Of a DNA stretch of 64,000 bases, positions 5,407-26,309 are shown piece by piece. The translations under genes and the position numbers were made by a program. The stretch's first letter is position 1, and each line of letters starts with the position of its first letter. This stretch comes from Microbotryum violaceum (lineage: Eukaryota), in the NCBI GenBank assembly GCA_001244265.2, contig CDLV01000010.1, positions 1,364,001-1,428,000 on the forward strand. The letters run 5' to 3'. The notes under the pieces are model-generated. The model did not search any database and was not told the DNA's origin. It saw only the letters and a program-made list of their open reading frames with translations.

Positions 5407-8400
5407 ATGCCCGGTGATACGGACACTGTGGTATCAGGGGGAACAACCTCTATCGTCTATGTCAAACCCCGCGATATCGACCCGTCATGCCACCTGCGCA
5501 ACGCGGGAGGCTGGTCGCAATGGATCAACGACGTCCGTGGAGCTCTCGGGGGCGACTATTGGAACTGCACGCTTGCGACGCCCATTCAGAAACCCAACGC
5601 GCGCACCGACCTGGAGCACGCCAACTTCCAAGCGATCGCGCTCTTGAGGCGCTCGGTCTCCCTCAACATCAAGAAGCAGATCAAAGATGGATTCGATCAC
5701 ACTCCCACCGACGTCTTGAAGATGATCAAGAAAGCGGTCGCAGCAGGCACAGTCACCGACATCTTCATCAAGCTCTAAGCCCTGCTCGATGCGGGTCCGC
5801 CTCCCTCCGGTGTCGACGCGTTCGAGAAGTACCAAGCCAACACCATTGAGCTGTTTAACACTCTTTCGGGATACAACCTTACCTTTGACCAGGTCATCTC
5901 GATACGCTTGATCCACTTTGGCAAGGACCTCTACAAGGAGTACTATACTCAAGCGCTCCGTCAAGACCTCGACAAGCTCCCTGATCCGATTGAAGCGCTT
6001 TAAACGCTTCAGACTCAAGCTGAATCCACGCCGGCACACAAGCCCATGGCGATGGTAGCTAGCTTGACCGCGACGGACAGATCTTCATCGACTCCGTCAG
6101 CTCCGTGCCGACACTGTGGAGGTCCTCACTGGAATCGAAAATGCCCCGTCAAGGACAAGAAGTCCAAGGCCTCCTCCGCGCCGTCCGCATCACTCGCCGC
6201 TGCTCCCGACATCTCGACGTTGGTAGACGGCCCGGTCCGCGGATACCTCACCGCAGCGATGTCCACATTGGCCAAACCTTCCCTCATCCTCGACAGCGGC
6301 GCGACGCATCACATCGTCAACGATCGCGCTTGTTTCACCAACTTCCGCAAGTGCAAGCCTGCTCCGCTCGAGGGCATCACGGGCGAGGCGGTCAATTCGA
6401 TCGAAGGCGTCGGTTCCGCTGTCGTTCGCTCCTTCGACGGCAGCATCGGTCAACTCCACCACGCGTTGTTCGTCCCCAGCGCGCCGGTCAGCCTCTTCTC
6501 CGCCAGTCGCGCCAACGCCGCGGGCTACGACATCAACCTTTCCCGAGGCAAAGCAACGGTCTCAGTCGACGGGTCGATTTGCCACACCGGGGAGATCACG
6601 AACGGCTTGTACCACATGCATGCTTCCCTAGTCGACGTCACTACTCTCATCGAGCAACCGGCTGATCTCAACTGAGGCTGTGCTGGGAGTCAACATGGAG
6701 GTAGCATTGAACGCAGACTTGAAATGTGATACATGCCAGGCTGGGAAGATCACACATCACCCTTTCCCCACCGTCGCGTCGAATCGTTCAGCCCAGCCTC
6801 TTGATCGAGTCCACATGGACCTTCTTGCGTTCGACGGCGCCGTGTCGTTAGGCGGCGCAAAATACGCCCTCGTCATTGTCGATGATTACACCCGATATCT
6901 CTGGGCAATTCCGATGTCGCACAAGTCCGATACCTTTGCGGCCTTCAAGTCGTGGCTTGCAAAGGTCGAGCGCTCCTCGTCGAGAAAACTCCTGGCAGTC
7001 CGCTCCGACAACGGTGGTGAATTCTTGTCGAACGAGTTCTCGAGCTTCCTGGAAGAACAAGGCATCACTCGTCAGCTTTCGATTCCCGATGCCCCTCAGC
7101 AAAACGGGGTTGCCGAACGCGCAAATCGCTCGATCACCGAGGGTGTCCGATCAATGCTCCACCAGTCGGGTCTATCTCACGCTTTGTGGGCCGAGGCATT
7201 GGCGACATATGTCTACGTCAAAAATCGCTCACCACACTCGGCAAATTCAGGCGTCACACCACACACGCGTTGGCACGGATCGAAGCCGTCAGCCGGCCAT
7301 CTCCGCGTATTCGGCTGCAGAGCGTGGAAGGCAGCTACCACCGAAGCGCGCAGCAAACTCGATCCGCGGGCATTCCACTTGTATTCGTCGGCTACGATCT
7401 CGAATCCAAGGGATACCGACTGTTTGACCCCGCTACCAGACAAGTTTTCAAATCGCGCAGCGTCACATTCTTCGAGGACGAGTTCCCAGCCAGGCGGGAG
7501 GGCATCACAGCAGCTCACGCGCCCGTCGCAGGCGACGACGACGACGACGACGATGACGAAGTCGTTGTACTCCCTGACCAGCATGCCAATCAGGCACCCC
7601 CCGACCAAGCGGAGCTTCCGGCTGCTTTACGTTTCGACGCACCGGGGCCCGCGTGGCAGCCACCCGTGGGTTCGCGCCCGCGCAACCCCCCAGCTCGTTA
7701 CGGCGCCCTAGCATCTTTGCGCTCGACCCCTTCTGCCTTCGCATTCTCTCTAGGCAAGGAGGTAACCAAACTTGTTGCTGATCTCGAAGCGGCGGGCATT
7801 GACACCTCGACGGCGAATCGACCACTCTCGGAACCAGAGGACCCGTTCTCGCTCCCGAGCAGTGATCCCACCATGTGGAATGAGGCCATGCGCCATCCTC
7901 ACGCCGCGGCATGGAAAGCGGGAGCCATTGAGGAACTCCGCTCGATGAAAGACGATCTCAAGGTGTTCAGCGTCGTCGGACTATCCTCCGTGCCCAAAGG
8001 AGCTACGATCTTACCAAGTCGTCACGTCTTTCAAACCAAACGCGACAAAGCCGGGAAGATGGTTTCACTGAAGAACCGCATTGTTGCACAGGGCTGCGCA
8101 CAAGGCCCAAACAGCTTCAACAACACCTTCTCACCCACGGCTAAGTACACCTCCATCCGCACGCTCATCGCGCACTCGGCCTCGAAGGGCCACCACATCA
8201 TTCAAGCCGACGTTGACAAGGCCTATCTTCACGGTGTGCTGGAGGAGGAGATCTACATGCGGGTTCCAACTGGCATCGAAGGCTACGAAGGCAAATGCCT
8301 CCGCCTTCATCGATCGATCTACGGTCTCAAGCAGGCAGGTCGAGTGTGGAACGACACGATCAACGCCACACTCGCAAGTCTCGGCTATCGTCGCCTCGCC

Positions 8401-9435
8401 TGCGACGAATGCATCTATCGTCATGAGGACGCTGGGGTGATCACTACATTGCACTCTACGTCGACGATCTACTCTTCTTTGGGCCGGATCTCGGGGAAAT
8501 CGATCGAGTCCTTGACCAACTCGACACCCTCTACGGAGTCAAATGCCTCGGCCCGGCCGAATGGGTACTCGGGTTCAGGTCGTACGACACGACGATGGCG
8601 GGATCTCCCTTCTCCAGCGTCAATACCTCCTTGACGTCTTGGATCGCTTCAACATGTCCGACTGCAACCCCTGCAAGTCACCCATGGAAGCCAACCTACA
8701 GCTTTTGCCGGAACCCAATACAGACTCCGCCGACAATGCCATCTACCGTTCCATGATTGGCTCACTCATGTACGCTGTTGTTGCCACTCGCCCTGATCTA
8801 GCCCACTCCGTCGGATATCTGTCACGTTTCGTCGGCAAGGCTGGCGACACTCACCTCGAGGCGGCCAAGCGCGTCCTTCGTTACATCAAAGGATCGCTCG
8901 ATCTTGGCATACACTACACGCGCACCAGTGCGCCTCTGCTGGGGTACGAGGGGTACTCTGACTCGGACTGGGGATCGGACATACAGACGTCGAGGTCCAC
9001 TATGGGTTACTTGTTCAAACTGGCGGGTGGGGCCATCTCATGGTCATCTTGTCTCCAACCTCGCGTAGCTTGTTCATCCACGGAAGCGGAGTACCTGGGC
9101 CTCTCGCATGCAGCCAAGGAGGCTGTCTTCCTTCGCTCGCTCCTCACCGAACTCGGTCTCGATACGTCGTCCCCTTTACGTCTTCTCGGGATAACCAGGG
9201 AGCTATAGCGCTCACCCAGAATCCGGTCTTCCACGCTCGCACCAAACATTTGCGCATGTTGGAGCATTTCGTTCGGGAACATGTTCGGAATGGAGAGATC
9301 TCGGTCACCTACATCCCAACCCACAATATGGTTGCCGACATTTTCACCAAGCCGCTGCCGCGAGTAGTCTTCCAGCGTCATTGTGACGCCATCGGTCTGC
9401 GCCGCATTTCAGGCCAAGAGCAAGGGGGGTGTTGA
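5407..9435 (+). pseudogene. Copia gag-pol polyprotein with stops and frameshifts
   Basis: Zn knuckle CRHCGGPHWNRKC; protease LILDSGATHH; integrase VHMDL / VRSDNGGEF / PQQNGVAER; RT QADVDKAYLHG / RSIYGLKQAGRVW; RNase H YSDSDW, SSTEAEY, ADIFTKPL. Split over at least 6 ORFs; the HH half of the integrase HHCC finger is not visible. Confidence 0.95.
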
Positions 9436-9672
9436 GGTAGATTACTCTTGCCTTAAATCTGCCTAGCGCGCGTCTCTATTTGTATTAGCCGCGCGGTCCA
9501 ATCGCATCTTTCCTTCTTCTTCTCCACTTGATTATGAACTCATTGGCTTGCCACTGCCGCCAACTCGTTCAGGTGTGTGAAGAACTCCTTTATTGCAATC
9601 TCACTTGATTACGAACTCATTGGCTTGCCACTGCCGCCAACTCGTTCAGCACATCGCTGTTCGATTTCTACA
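9430..9672 (+). repeat. 3' LTR of copia element
   Basis: Near-identical to 5114-5356. Confidence 0.97.
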
Positions 9673-9989: not shown

Positions 9990-10262
9990 TCGCTCGACCA
10001 GATCGAAGTTTTGTTGCTACCCCTTCTTTCAATGTCGTGAGTCTTGGTACCTCCATCACTATCCGTTTGACTTCGCGTCGAAAGTGCAGTCGTTCGAATC
10101 GACCGCTCTACCTGCTATCGACGTCCATCACGCCCGCCTCACGTGGCTGGCCCCGCTGTTCGATGAGCGCCTGCAGAACGTGCAGCCTCGCCAAAGCCCG
10201 TTTGACGATCGAGCGCTCTTGCGTTGCAGTCTGCTGATGCTCTTGCTTGTACCGTTGTAGTT
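9990..10262 (+). repeat. Copy 2 of the dispersed repeat or gene-fragment family
   Basis: cgttcgaatcgaccgctctacctgct and gatcgagcgctcttgcgttgc match gcgttcgaatcgaccactcgacctgct and gatcgagcactcttgccttgc at 25.3-25.5 kb. Confidence 0.7.
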
Positions 10263-10384
10263 ATCTACTTGGACCCATTCGTCAGCTCGCTTGTGGTTGG
10301 CGTGCCACGCCGTGGCTGCCACTGGCTTTCGGAGCCGTGCGTTCGCTTCGCTCACAATTTTTCCCGTACTTCGGTGCGGATAGA

Positions 10385-10670
10385 TTGGCCGCTGCCCGAA
10401 AGTTCATTAGGGACATGGTGGTGACGTTGGGAATGGGGGCAACGTTTGTGCAGATCGTTGAGTCGACAGCCTTGGCCCCACATACCGTCGCTGCAACATG
10501 GCATATTGATGCAACTTCGCATCAGGCCTCCAAACTCCAGGCCGTCCAGGACGGAACGGCAAGCGGGGTGGATGACCTGGATAAACGTGTTGGCAAGGTC
10601 GAGGTCCGTGTGGACAGCTTTAGGAGAAGCTTGCTCGCCACCCGGCGGAAGAAGCGGGAAAGGAGGCGAG
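10385..10670 (+). pseudogene. Disabled copy of the 78-aa microprotein gene at 10735-11042
   Basis: ATG replaced by TTG, splice-donor region deleted, and a 1-nt deletion with TAG in exon 2 relative to the intact copy. Confidence 0.65.
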
Positions 10671-10734
10671 GAGGGCATGACCCGATCGTTATACCTCTCT
10701 TTCCCCCCTGTCCCCCTTGTTCCTCCCCACCCTC

Positions 10735-11042
10735 CTACGCCTTCTTCCCCGCTTCTTCGGCCGCTTGCCGAGCAAGCTTCTCCTCAAGCTTGTTCATACG
10801 GACCTCGACCTCGCCAACTCGTTTATTGAGGCCGTCCACCCGGCTTGCGGTTCGATCCGCCGCGGTCTTGAGTTCGGAGGCCTGATCGATGCAAAGCTGC
10901 GTTAACATTCTATGCTGCAGGACGGTAAGTGGGGGCAAGGCTGTCGGCTTACCTCGCGAGTGCCTCCGACGATTTGAGCGAAGGTCGCGCCCATCGTCAT
11001 CGTCACGACAACGTCTTTGACGAGTTTTCGGGTAGCGGCCAT
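10735..11042 (-). CDS. Predicted 78-aa microprotein, hydrophobic N-terminal segment plus coiled coil; intron 10882-10952
   Basis: MAATRKLVKDVVVTMTMGATFAQIVGGTRE|gtaagc...ttaac...cag|ASELKTAADRTASRVDGLNKRVGEVEVRMNKLEEKLARQAAEEAGKKA*. Confidence 0.65.
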
Positions 11043-11624
11043 CTTATCTGCACCGACGGACGGGAAAAGTTGTGAGCAGCGAAGCGAGCTCACAGCTCCG
11101 AAAGCCAGTGGCAGCCGTGGCGTGGCACGCCAGCGTGCTGAGAGAGTGGTGGATACAAGCGAGCTGACGAACGGGGCCAAGTAATTAACATCGCCAGCCA
11201 GGCCTTTAACAGGGAGGACGTCGATTGCGAAGTCGTTTTGGCCCGTTTCGACGACGGCTCATCGGCCATGGCATTGGACGACATGGGTTGAATCTAGTAG
11301 ACTGTCACGGGAGACGTTATCATAGTTGATGCACTATGAGTGAAGGAGAAGGGCGAGGTAGGGGATCGATGATGGCGGGCCAATCGCCATGACTTGGTCG
11401 ATGGAAAGAACTCTGTAGAATTTTTGCCTTGCTGTGCAAGCCGAGACTTGCTTTGATCGGTAGAGATCCGTTCACTAGGCCATACCACCACCAATGTTGG
11501 CACATTATGAGTTTATCTCATCACGAGCTTACACACAGGCCGGTCTCTTGGGTGTATTGCAGCTCCTGCCTACGTGCAAACGAAAGGTTCCGGTCAGAGT
11601 TCACCATCACGCTAACCTCGTTCC

Positions 11625-11944
11625 CTAGTCCGCCCTCGCCCCGTTCTCCCGCCTGCTTTCAACAAGAGCCTTGGCTTTAGCTAATCGTTCCTGCAGAATC
11701 TCGAACCTCTCCCGGTTCTCTGAAGCCAGGTCCCTTTCCACGCGCGTTTTCTCGTCGGCCAGCCACTGGCGGATGAGGAACCGCGTTAGCACGCTACTAT
11801 ATTGCCGCGACTGCATGGCCGATGAGGCTCATAACCTACCGGCATGTAGTAGTCCCTCACGACATCTGCAGAGTGGACAAGAGCAGACCCAACGACCAGT
11901 ATTTCTGCGGCTTTTCGGACCAAAGTTCGATGGACCAACAACAT
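11625..11944 (-). CDS. Predicted 81-aa microprotein, hydrophobic segment plus coiled coil; intron 11766-11839
   Basis: MLLVHRTLVRKAAEILVVGSALVHSADVVRDYYMP|gtaggt...gctaac...cag|WLADEKTRVERDLASENRERFEILQERLAKAKALVESRRENGARAD*. Confidence 0.65.
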
Positions 11945-12418
11945 GGCAACCCGCACCTGCATCCGAGACGTAGTGAGGAATCGGTGAGCACGAGCGGGCG
12001 CACGGCCCTAACAGCTAGGTAGCAGTGATGCCGCCTCGGCACACCGAAGCCGAGTGGCGGCTAGGGCTTGATACCGCAAGCCCAGTTGAGAGACTCACGG
12101 TAGTTATGACAGTGAGAGGGTCTACAACGATACAATGAAGAGCATCAGCGGACTGTACTGCAAGAGTGCTCGGTCGGTGATCGCCGACTGGCGGATCTTT
12201 ACCCAGGCCGTGACCAGCACCAAGTGCCCGCGTCAGTCCGGCGTCTCGGCACGTAGGACGCGTCATCTCGCGGCAGGTCGCGGCAAGCCATTATGACACT
12301 GCCACGCACGAGCTTTGGAGCAGTCGAGCGACAACAATAGTGCGTGGCAATGTCATAATGGCTTGCCGCGAGATGACCCGATTCCTCACATACGTCTCGG
12401 ATACAGGTGCGGGTTGCC

Positions 12419-12745
12419 ATGTCATCCGTCCTAGAACCCTTGCTCCGCAGAGTTTCCCATAACTTTATTGTGACCGTCGCTCTGGTTCAATGTGCCTACG
12501 TCGCGAGGAGCTTCTACATCCCGGTACGTCATGAGGCTCATCGCCGCATGCGGTCGCGGCAACATAGGAGCATGCTAATGCGGTTCTCCATCGGCCAGAC
12601 ACCCAGCGACAGGCAAATCGAGCTCAAAAAATTGCTCGACAGGGTGGATAGGAAACTTCGTGAAGTGGAGACGCGTTTGGAAAGCAAGGGGGAGAACGGG
12701 ACGAGGGCGGACACGGAACGAGGTTGGCGTGATGGTGAAGTTTAA
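12419..12745 (+). CDS. Predicted 83-aa microprotein, paralogue of 11625-11944; intron 12524-12598
   Basis: MSSVLEPLLRRVSHNFIVTVALVQCAYVARSFYIP|gtacgt...gctaat...cag|TPSDRQIELKKLLDRVDRKLREVETRLESKGENGTRADTERGWRDGEV*. Confidence 0.65.
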   Translation: MSSVLEPLLRRVSHNFIVTVALVQCAYVARSFYIPVRHEAHRRMRSRQHRSMLMRFSIGQTPSDRQIELKKLLDRVDRKLREVETRLESKGENGTRADTERGWRDGEV

Positions 12746-13078
12746 GCGGGATTTTTCGTATGCACTTTGGCAGAAGCTGAAATACACCCAAGAGACGGAA
12801 CTGTGTCTGGGCTTGTGATCAGATAGACTCATAATGTGCCAACATTTGGTGGTGGTCTGGCCCCAGTGAACGGATCTCTCACGATCAAATCAAGTCTCGG
12901 CTTGTGTGCACAGCAAGGCAAAAATTCTACAGAGAGTTCTTTGCTTCGAGCAAGCCACGGCGATCGGCCCACATTGGCTCTCCTTTGCCCTCATCGATCG
13001 CCTACCTCGCCCTTCTCCTTCACTCATAGTGCATCAACTGTGCCAACCTCTCCCGTGATAGTTTACTAAACTCAATCC

Positions 13079-15635
<2,557 letters not shown>

Positions 15636-24626: not shown

Positions 24627-26309
24627 ATTGTAACGAGGTGACATTCTGGACGATATTCGGGTTGCAGAAAGAAAAGAGAGACGCGAGCTACAAAATTGGG
24701 CAACTATGTCAGAGGAGACGATGCAAGCCAGAAGATGTGTTGGAGAGGCAAAGCTGGTGTAGGCCGTGCTTGGTCTGTCAAAAGTAGTCATCGCAGATGG
24801 TCGAGCTTGAGAGCTTGAGAGCCGAGAGCGAGTCACTTTCCCCAGCGCACGCGCGCCCCCCCCTCCCCCCCAATTTTCGTTGAATAAACCTTCAGCTCTA
24901 AAGAGCTTCGGGCACTTTAAAATAAAATTTGGAAACATCAGACCTTTCGATTACTGGGTATAGCTTGATTAACGAAGTCGTGTCAGTCCTTGTCATGCAT
25001 CTTGCGCTGTTGACCGCCCCGGGATATGGGACCCGTGGGGTCCTGGCTACCACGCGCACGCCCTGTCCGCACGAGCCTGAAGTGCGCGACAAGCGGTGCC
25101 ACCTTATCGTGCACGGGCCGGCACGACTTGCCGCGAGCTGACGCGTCCTCAGAGGCTGTCGCGTCTTCGTTGGCGAGCTCCGCCGGCCGTGCTCACGAAT
25201 TTTGTCTTCGCTCCCCAAACTTGCTCCTGCTGCTTCACTTGCTCGACCAGCATAGATTCTATACCACACCTACCATTAGGTTTGATCAAACATGTGAGCT
25301 CTTGTATCTCTATCTCTGCCCGCGTATCTCGGTGCCGGAAGAGCAGGCGTTCGAATCGACCACTCGACCTGCTGTTGAGGCCCATCTAGCTCTACCTGGC
25401 CGCCGGTGCTCGGTGTTTTCCTGGAGGAGTTACAGCCTAGTAAAGGCCAAAGGCCCGATCGGCGATCGAGCACTCTTGCCTTGCTGTCCCGCTGATTTCT
25501 TCGTTGTATCTTTGTAGACATCTGAAGCCAACGTGTAAGTCTGGCCTACCTTTGCTGTCTCACTGCACCGTATGCCGACTAGTACTACCACGCCTCGGCG
25601 TCCTATGGCTACTTGACTGGCTCTCGGAGGCAGCCGTGTGCAAGATTTGCTCACAGTGTTCTTCGCGTGCATCTCGGATGCAGTTGACATTTCAAACACC
25701 GTGCTTAGACAAGGCTACCCTGCCGGAGTTTTTTCGTTGGCCTCCACTGTCCAGATCATGTCTATGGTCAGCAACGCCGTGCATGTAAGATGACCTTGTC
25801 TCCATTTGCAGTCGCCATAGCACGCTAACGCAAGCTCATCGGCCAGTCCGGGAAGAACGACTTGAGGGAGGACACAGCAAGAGTCTTGGAGATACACGAA
25901 TTGAAGAATGAAATGAATAATTTTTTTGCTCTCATGTCGGAAAGGAGCGAGGAAGATTACGACGAAAAGAAGAGGTAAAGAGAGAGGATGGTCTGAGTTG
26001 GACACGGGACACCTCGTTGTTGACTCGTACAGGGGCAAACGGGTTGAATCGGAGCCAGTAGACAGGTCTTTCCCTTCTCATGTCCAACGCTATGCTCTCG
26101 ACTACTCGATTCTCCCTCTCGGCTCTCAACCTCGGCCACCTGCGCTTACTACTTTCGGCAGATCAAGCACGGCCTACTCCATCATCGCCGCTCCAGGCCA
26201 TCTCCTGGCTTCCACCGTCTCCTCTAGCATAGCTGCGCAATTTTGTAGCTCGCTTCTCTCTTTCCTTTCTGCGACCCAGAGCTCGTCAAAAAGGCATATC
26301 GTTACAGTT
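24627..26309. repeat. Diverged ~200-bp inverted repeats (24627-24832 and 26110-26309) enclosing copy 3 of the dispersed family (25110-25520)
   Basis: gcagaaagaaaagagagacgcgagctacaaaattg pairs with caattttgtagctcgcttctctctttcctttctgc. Confidence 0.85.

Follow-up and report, generated by a model that had tools for sequence, protein, structure and literature searches.

Inverted pairs of small two-exon genes in Microbotryum violaceum and their genus-restricted, putatively membrane-anchored two-helix products

The structure, transcription and divergence of a gene cluster in Microbotryum violaceum were evaluated in a stretch of 64,000 nucleotides (nt) of contig CDLV01000010.1 (assembly GCA_001244265.2, positions 1,364,001 to 1,428,000 of the forward strand), which is called the window below. 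The cluster occupied positions 10385-12745 and contained three intact genes, A (78 amino acids), B (81 amino acids) and C (83 amino acids), together with a dead copy, A'. The three genes were very probably real, transcribed, protein-coding and confined to the genus Microbotryum. The fuller reading, in which they form a fast-turnover Microbotryum family of two-helix proteins of about 80 residues with a membrane-anchor mechanism, was preferred tentatively, and its chance as a whole statement was placed somewhat under even. According to this reading, each gene would comprise, or once have comprised, a non-coding leader exon with a small upstream open reading frame (uORF), a leader intron and an exon for a basic, an 18-residue hydrophobic and a further basic segment; a short phase-0 intron would come next, and then an exon that encodes a charged amphipathic helix some 45 residues long. 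As an uncleaved signal anchor, the N-terminal segment would insert into the membrane, from which the charged helix would project to bind partners by helix-helix contacts, and the proteins would act as small membrane-tethered adaptors.

Four public sequencing runs (X1, X2, X3 and X12), whose kinds were guessed or are not on record, were aligned as contigs to positions 10200-13200; the contig depths were not used for ranking the genes. The exon and intron coordinates, which were checked by translation, are given below.

10953-11042, minus strand: first coding exon of gene A, 30 codons; a basic start, then 18 residues between flanking charges
10882-10952, minus strand: intron of gene A, 71 nt, phase 0, GT..AG; a joint in X12 skips 71 nt
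10735-10881, minus strand: last coding exon of gene A, 48 codons and stop; charged helix
11840-11956, minus strand: second exon of gene B, 12 nt of 5' untranslated region (UTR) and 35 codons (coding sequence 11840-11944)
11766-11839, minus strand: coding intron of gene B, 74 nt, phase 0; joint 11765/11840 in X2 and X12
11625-11765, minus strand: last coding exon of gene B, 46 codons and stop; same splice in the orthologue P0004 (M. silenes-dioicae)
12407-12523, plus strand: exon of gene C with the start codon (coding sequence 12419-12523, 35 codons)
12524-12598, plus strand: intron of gene C, 75 nt, phase 0; joints in X12 and X3; the spliced product is MVLG_03969
12599-12745, plus strand: last coding exon of gene C, 48 codons and stop
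10385-10690 (about), plus strand: pseudogene A', an inverted copy of A, from the alignment to A

The coding exons of A, B and C comprised 30 + 48, 35 + 46 and 35 + 48 codons, respectively, and the three introns all had GT..AG ends, phase 0 and a branch-like motif (CTAAC, CTAAT or TTAAC). An earlier interpretation made from the DNA letters alone (the sequence-only reading) had described three intact two-exon genes of 78, 81 and 83 amino acids, phase-0 introns of 71-75 nt with a branch site, and one pseudogene. The coordinates and translations confirmed the genes, and the introns measured 71, 74 and 75 nt. The alignment to A likewise established that A' is a dead copy: its start codon reads TTG instead of ATG, the 5' splice site falls in a 17-nt deletion, two further deletions remove 1 nt each, and neither the branch motif nor the stop codon is left. 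The gene set of that reading stood for the three genes and A' but was incomplete, as B has an additional leader exon and leader intron and a fifth member, D, lies 13 kb away.

The contigs of X12 were 99-100% identical to the window, and X3 represented a relative that was 93-96% alike. The junction of A was spliced in one of the four runs (X12, in a contig that joins 10880 to 10952), and the coding junction of B was exact in two of the four (X2 and X12). The junction of C was spliced in X12, where the shorter side measured 29 letters, and in X3, where 3 letters lay between the two sides. The spliced B-like and C-like contigs of X3 had joints displaced by a few letters owing to divergence. X12 also contained one colinear contig over the intron of C, and X1, which had a low depth and appeared DNA-like, contained only colinear contigs over the introns of B and C. 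Such exact removal of introns with GT..AG ends, seen in three studies, points most readily to RNA. All three predicted junctions (10882-10952, 11766-11839 and 12524-12598) were present as intron-less contigs in public runs. As a separate observation, the X12 contig with spliced A also skipped 10265-10355 on the minus strand (91 nt with GT..AG ends) and extended leftwards of 10264 by over 600 nt; this would be a 3' UTR that is long and spliced, or else a separate transcript of the minus strand nearby.

The relatives of the family were found in the same genus. The 108-codon open frame over C matched three proteins, all from Microbotryum, and the spliced product of C (P0003) was identical over 83 residues to MVLG_03969, a hypothetical protein of M. 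lychnidis-dioicae p1A1 Lamole. By this identity, the window comes from that fungus or from a strain very close to it. The orthologue of B, P0004, is annotated in M. silenes-dioicae only; it differed at 4 of 87 residues and had the same splice. P0005 of M. saponariae corresponded to a B-type exon; over 46 residues it had about 8 substitutions and 3 inserted residues. By sequence, B and C belong to the hypothetical group MVLG_03969 / BQ5605_C013g07233-07234. For A, no annotated protein was matched by a word-based search with its last exon among proteins of 26-84 residues. The models of C in M. silenes-dioicae (P0001) and M. saponariae (P0002) read through the 75-nt intron, which is open in frame, and this intron retention looks like an annotation error rather than biology. 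B-type and C-type genes both occurred in M. saponariae (P0005 and P0002), and hence the B/C split predates the divergence of that species.

Searches for known families were then compared. A Pfam search with five exon or open-reading-frame (ORF) translations gave no match above the cut-offs, the best scores being 11-14 bits against 25-35 bits (E 0.06-0.3) for XhlA, Lambda_CIII and BRI3BP. A B+C profile was built from P0003 and P0004, two of five Microbotryum proteins, without A, A' and D, so that A-type relatives could be missed. In a HMMER search of 1.84 billion representative proteins, this profile had 4 matches at E <= 0.001, three of which were from Microbotryum; P0003, P0004 and P0005 were recovered at E 1e-11 to 1e-43, and the fourth, a repetitive protein of 940 amino acids, was judged spurious. 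The same profile had 0 matches at E <= 1 among the chain sequences of the PDB, and a Foldseek comparison of the AlphaFold2 model with the PDB had 0 matches at E <= 10. In the ESM Atlas, the best feature score was 0.86, under the lead level of 0.9, and the structure rows were generic helices. Among metagenome contigs, the B+C alignment gave 183 pattern matches, none of which was confirmed. MVLG_03969 was named in no searchable main text, the Microbotryum secretome and expression lists standing in supplements. Literature on inverted duplication, palindromes, microproteins and orphan genes in Microbotryum had nothing on the locus among the matches listed. The claims of lineage specificity and of no match to known families both held, since only Microbotryum relatives were found among the 1.84 billion representatives and in the word-based searches. 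The claim that no family could be recognised was correct in that no described family was found, but gene C had already been annotated as a hypothetical protein. Judged by these comparisons of sequence, the family is an orphan restricted to Microbotryum.

The leader exons and the fifth member extended the gene plan, and their features are as follows.

12099-12217, minus strand: non-coding leader exon of gene B, upstream end not defined, to about 12217; X12 joint and X3 loose end
11957-12098, minus strand: leader intron of gene B, 142 nt, GTGAGT..CAG; X12 joint with 29 letters on the shorter side
10206-10260, plus strand: leader-exon homologue upstream of A', with a 7-codon uORF; from its similarity to the B and D leaders
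25456-25978, plus strand: fifth member D, with leader exon 25456-25534 and leader intron to 25683
25684-25784, plus strand: hydrophobic exon of D
25785-25846, plus strand: phase-0 intron of D, 62 nt
25847-25978, plus strand: charged exon of D

The leader joint of B in X12 was read at 11953/12096 and the cut was placed at +3, that is, 11956 joined to 12099. The acceptor of the leader intron, CTCGGATGCAG, ends at 11957, and the splice lands 12 nt before the ATG of B. This splice removes an upstream in-frame ATG, which is the one used by the M. silenes-dioicae annotation P0004 (87 residues). Ahead of the start exon of C, the acceptor-like CTCGGATACAG ends at 12406. In X3, loose ends of the B and C contigs had identical 14 leader letters before the homologous acceptors (11956 and 12407); in the window strain, an X12 contig was colinear over 12128-12523. 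The leader at 10206-10260 was 84% identical to the B leader (12122-12176, minus strand) and 79-82% identical to the D leader (25456-25523), and the same B leader segment was about 80% identical to 25456-25519 at D. A 7-codon uORF (ATG to TAG) was kept in the B leader (12122-12145, minus strand) and the A' leader (10237-10260, plus strand). The two uORF peptides differed at 3 of 6 residues after Met, and the uORF was lost in D. This uORF may be a translational control element.

The leader intron of D ends in the acceptor CTCGGATGCAG, and its coding intron ends in GCTAAC followed by CATCGGCCAG, as in the family; the motif at the 3' end of the B and C coding introns was thus common to D as well. 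The coding exon of D has no ATG at its start, and from its sequence D is probably a pseudogene. An upstream motif, composed of TGCCGCGAG, then the base A or C, then TGACGCGTCC, was observed at 12255-12280 (minus strand), 12352-12381 (plus strand) and 25124-25149 (plus strand). The copies ahead of B and D contain ACGCGT, which we take to be MluI-box-like, and the copy on the C side is without it. For the family, this motif is a candidate promoter element.

The plan of the proteins was conserved as the sequence-only reading had described it, with a basic start, a hydrophobic stretch and a charged helix. In exon 1, the basic start was followed by exactly 18 residues between flanking charged residues in A, B and C, and then by a basic residue, after which B and C had aromatic residues and a proline, the putative hinge ahead of the charged helix. 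The hydropathy profiles of exon 1 correlated in 6 of 6 pairs of A, B, C and D (r 0.40-0.63, values that shuffles reached in 16 to 143 of 2000), whereas the profiles of the last exon did not. The last exon had 42-50% charged residues. The AlphaFold2 model, which was based on an alignment of two sequences, placed helices at residues 5-33 and 38-80. A complex prediction of C (P0003) with P0004 gave a score of 0.06 against a mark of 0.34 without controls, and nothing was concluded from it.

The divergence between B and C was unevenly distributed along the two genes, as listed below.

B versus C, 40 nt before the ATG: 97% identity
B versus C, coding intron: 84% identity
B versus C, 3' flanks: 86-90% identity
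B versus C, exon 1: 58% identity, 44 of 105 sites different
B versus C, first two thirds of the last exon: unalignable as DNA

The identity of the non-coding arms was 83-97% overall. The proportion of differing sites in exon 1 was larger than that in the 3' flank (48 of 412; Fisher p 2e-11) and in the intron and 5' UTR (22 of 114; Fisher p 4e-4). The differences in exon 1 fell at codon positions 1, 2 and 3 in 11, 13 and 20 of 35 codons, respectively; the nonsynonymous divergence (dN) was 0.50, the synonymous divergence (dS) was 1.09, and the indels between B and C (24 nt) were in frame. A recent duplication followed by positive selection was rejected for B and C, because the synonymous and third positions were far more diverged than the flanks. 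Judging from this pattern, B and C would be old paralogs under some protein-level constraint, and the coding cores look older than the non-coding frames around them. Most simply, the younger frames would result from arm-to-arm gene conversion that spared the cores, or the cores may have been replaced from another paralog. The comparison of the flanks (48 of 412) with the third positions of exon 1 (20 of 35), made within the window, could fit conversion of the frames.

Hypermutation resembling repeat-induced point mutation (RIP) was also considered as a cause of the arm divergence. RIP-like hypermutation in Microbotryum targets the TCG context. Among the differences in the B/C flanks were 25 transitions, 2 of them at TCG, and 23 transversions; A'/A had 47 transitions, 6 of them at TCG, and 30 transversions. 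This cause was rejected, as the transitions were roughly equal to the transversions and the TCG context was rare.

In the sister species, the B/C pair differed at 4 of 87 and 4 of 83 residues. Against its models in M. silenes-dioicae and M. saponariae, C had changes at 20 of 154 residues of the exons but at only 1 of 50 residues of the translated intron (Fisher p 0.03). The substitutions in X3 and X1 within the three genes comprised 7 non-synonymous and 7 synonymous changes, too few to test positive selection. Indels were in frame between species also, as seen for 9 nt in C of X3 and 3 residues in P0005. The 9-nt insertion of X3 lies in the last exon of C at 12612/12613 (plus strand), and the five substitutions listed for that exon in X3 (codons 50-58) comprised 4 non-synonymous and 1 synonymous.

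The arrangement of the genes was evaluated by alignment of the arms, in which the following features were used.

12268-12381: centre of the B/C palindrome, with 42-nt arms that are 88% complementary and a 30-nt loop; it holds the motif common to the region upstream of D (25124-25149)
11213-11560, minus strand: region upstream of the helicase gene plus the first 72 coding bases of that gene (11213-11284), in inverted copy
13079-15635, plus strand: DEAH-box helicase gene, a neighbour outside the family (Pfam DEAD, HA2_N, HA2_C and OB_NTP_bind)

A' and A form a tail-to-tail palindrome, whose arms at about 10260-10690 and 10738-11189 were 81% alike. B and C form a head-to-head palindrome about the centre 12268-12381, whose arms reach 11213 and 13150. 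The two inverted pairs named in the sequence-only reading were thus borne out. The arms 11213-11376 and 12987-13150 were 91% complementary, with further arms up to 11624; the B arm thus repeats, in inverted orientation, both C and the promoter with the 5' end of the neighbouring DEAH helicase gene. The continuation of the A arm beyond 11189 was found at 12122-12176 instead, and for this reason the B arm looks inserted between the coding exons of A and the A leader. In the history proposed from these alignments, the tail-to-tail palindrome A'/A would have been present in the first state. C would then have been copied in inverted orientation, together with the promoter and the 5' end of the helicase gene, into the space between the coding exons and the leader exon of A. 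As an outcome, B would use a leader homologous to that upstream of A', and A would be read from the copied helicase upstream region. The X12 contig with A ran up to 11249, inside the copied helicase 5' end, and gene A may be transcribed from the duplicated helicase upstream region. Expansion by inverted duplication had been suggested before; growth of the cluster by inverted duplication was supported, but simple expansion is too plain an account, as the coding cores and the frames differ in apparent age.

Two further features of this region were observed. The copied helicase 5' end opens a 64-codon uORF (11090-11284, minus strand) directly ahead of gene A. A transcript of A that runs through A' (10385-11042, minus strand) folds into an imperfect hairpin of about 300 bp (-396.9 kcal/mol, z -25), which is a possible Dicer substrate. 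The microRNA precursor families of Rfam were below the gathering score at both palindrome centres on both strands (72.9 versus 168 bits; 37.2 versus 64 bits). These sub-threshold matches, which included MIR1437, MIR9772 and others, are due to the palindrome hairpins, as such models match any long hairpin.

Several results weigh against the membrane-anchor reading of the family. The Kyte-Doolittle maxima over 19 residues were 1.37 for A, 1.27 for B and 1.63 for C, denoting moderate hydrophobicity; the usual threshold is 1.6. The hydrophobic stretch of B contains E, H and D, and the 18-residue core is compatible with a cleaved signal peptide too. The confidence of the models was modest, with a mean predicted local distance difference test (pLDDT) of 70 and a predicted template modelling score (pTM) of 0.34 for AlphaFold2 and a pTM of 0.27 for the Atlas model. 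Two of the five copies (A' and D) are dead or doubtful; the copies were counted within the window, and other donors of cores outside it are possible. Moreover, P0002 continues into the 3' UTR and has its end in another frame, and the high amino-acid change between the C orthologues could reflect weak constraint. The arm-to-arm conversion suggested for the younger frames has the mosaic only as its basis.

Among the other explanations, the family may consist of secreted small effectors, with a cleaved signal peptide, mature charged helices of about 55 residues delivered into the Silene host and fast change under host pressure. This explanation is possible but on balance unlikely. The genes are lineage-specific, small (78-83 residues), clustered and duplicated, so that the small size and lineage restriction of effectors were both found, and much amino-acid change was seen between the orthologues, the X3 differences being clustered in exon 2 of C. 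The hydrophobic core has a length like that of a signal peptide and is followed by small residues. The cluster also adjoins a copia-type retrotransposon fragment (RVT_2 at 7021-8634), and in Microbotryum lychnidis-dioicae the genes for small secreted proteins are located closer to transposons (PMC4469406). However, the charged n-region is long (10-11 residues), and the core of B has charged residues. The basic and then aromatic residues after the core in B and C resemble a membrane interface rather than a cleavage region, and the mature part would be without cysteines. MVLG_03969, as noted above, is absent from the searchable main texts, with the secretome lists in supplements.

A distinctly unlikely explanation is that the genes have little or no protein function and are young, decaying, transcribed ORFs, for which RNA (the leader, the acceptor, pieces of the intron and the A'/A hairpin leading to RNA interference (RNAi)) would matter if anything does. 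The non-coding pieces were better kept than the coding cores, and the dead or doubtful copies also fit such decay. One X12 contig spanned both arms of A'/A, and the stretch folds with the energy given above; a contig over two arms is, however, no proof of a single transcript. As 14% of random 80-codon frames in the window were open, the mere openness of a frame says little. Microbotryum lychnidis-dioicae has the core genes of RNAi and expresses them (PMC4469406). However, the third positions differed most, dN was smaller than dS in exon 1, the frames were open with in-frame indels over three paralogs and three species, and the hydropathy plan was kept while the sequence diverged. These patterns of codon positions, indels and hydropathy make the decay explanation less likely.

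The mosaic of B and C leads to a further proposal, which was considered improbable. In it, the frames (leader exon, acceptor, 3' half of the coding intron and UTR) would act as homology anchors with which palindromic and dispersed paralogs swap or retain divergent coding cassettes by gene conversion. This would provide a small inbuilt source of diversity for proteins at the host interface or the surface of a fungus that castrates plants, with dosage control by hairpin RNAi.

A location in mitochondria or another organelle, to which the basic N-terminus would target the proteins and in whose membrane the hydrophobic helix would lie, was judged very improbable. Small inner-membrane proteins commonly have a basic, amphipathic start, then one helix of moderate hydrophobicity and a coiled-coil tail, and the hydrophobic moment of the first 18 residues was 0.74-1.21. 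However, an acidic residue occurred within the first 14 residues of each N-terminus, and none of the five translations had a Pfam match. Housekeeping organelle microproteins are usually conserved, and the family here is limited to one genus and changes fast. The role in recognition, incompatibility or a toxin-antidote module that the sequence-only reading had offered, with B and C (or A and a partner) acting on each other, was without support and is scarcely credible: B and C are transcribed head to head about a common centre and the paralogs are strongly diverged, but the Pfam, profile, PDB sequence and Foldseek searches gave nothing characteristic of a known drive or incompatibility system, A' is merely a dead copy and the B/C pair is little changed in the sister species.

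The membrane-anchored two-helix family was further compared with known systems. Bacterial DivIC-type single-pass proteins resemble A, B and C in that a single hydrophobic helix at the N-terminus precedes a long charged one, and the Atlas structure search listed a DivIC cluster among the nearest models (TM 0.47, under the bar). Small mitochondrial assembly factors are single-pass membrane proteins with a coiled-coil tail. Unlike the present family, which is genus-restricted and has no sequence match or significant fold match, the DivIC-type proteins and the mitochondrial assembly factors are conserved and housekeeping. Cone-snail toxin genes have conserved frames with hypervariable mature regions. 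The locus is similar to them in that the UTR and intron were kept and the coding part was strongly diverged; it is unrelated to them in sequence and biology, and its synonymous sites were diverged too (dS about 1.1), which suggests different ages of the parts rather than positive selection alone.

The clustered small-protein candidate effectors of smuts and rusts, including the small secreted protein (SSP) sets of Microbotryum, are similar to the locus family in small size, genus restriction, clustered duplication, a retrotransposon fragment nearby, fast amino-acid change and an N-terminal hydrophobic segment (PMC5713455, PMC6831777, PMC4469406). They differ from it, as the locus family has no cysteines, a charged-helix tail and inverted pairs instead of tandem arrays, its leader, intron and UTR were better kept than its cores, and its signal-peptide cleavage is only putative. 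No sequence relation to the described effectors was found in Pfam or in the profile search of 1.84 billion representatives. Mammalian sex-chromosome palindromes, which are kept alike by gene conversion (PMC6790999), also have inverted arms, a short spacer and transcribed genes. The arms here are about 0.5-1 kb, whereas those described there are kilobases to megabases. Moreover, the coding cores were the least alike part of the arms here, which is the reverse of the homogenisation of genes, and conversion at this locus is inferred.

The neighbours of the cluster were genes of the RRP36 and DnaJ-X types on the left and, on the right, the DEAH-box helicase and a phosphoacetylglucosamine mutase. 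The copia-type retrotransposon fragment just left of the cluster occupied 6000-9208 (plus strand) and contained RVT_2 and a retroviral SH3-like domain in the ORF 7021-8634. Two 48-nt direct repeats (9525-9572 and 9602-9649, plus strand), 98% alike and 77 nt apart, were located between this fragment and the cluster.

Host specialisation and the evolution of non-recombining chromosomes are both studied in anther-smut fungi as a model, and small, fast-changing proteins restricted to one genus are the usual suspects in host interaction. The anatomy of this lineage-specific cluster in a plant pathogen is new here; gene C was already known as the hypothetical protein MVLG_03969. The cluster represents a family mostly missed by standard annotation, in which no annotated protein matching A was found, B is annotated in one species only and the orthologues of C are annotated with a retained intron. 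Furthermore, the locus provides a resolved example of the swapping of promoters and leaders through nested inverted duplication, and coding cores that look older than their frames are an unusual mosaic. If the proteins are secreted or surface-anchored, they would be candidate host-specificity factors; if they are not, the locus would still illustrate cleanly how microprotein genes arise, turn over and die.

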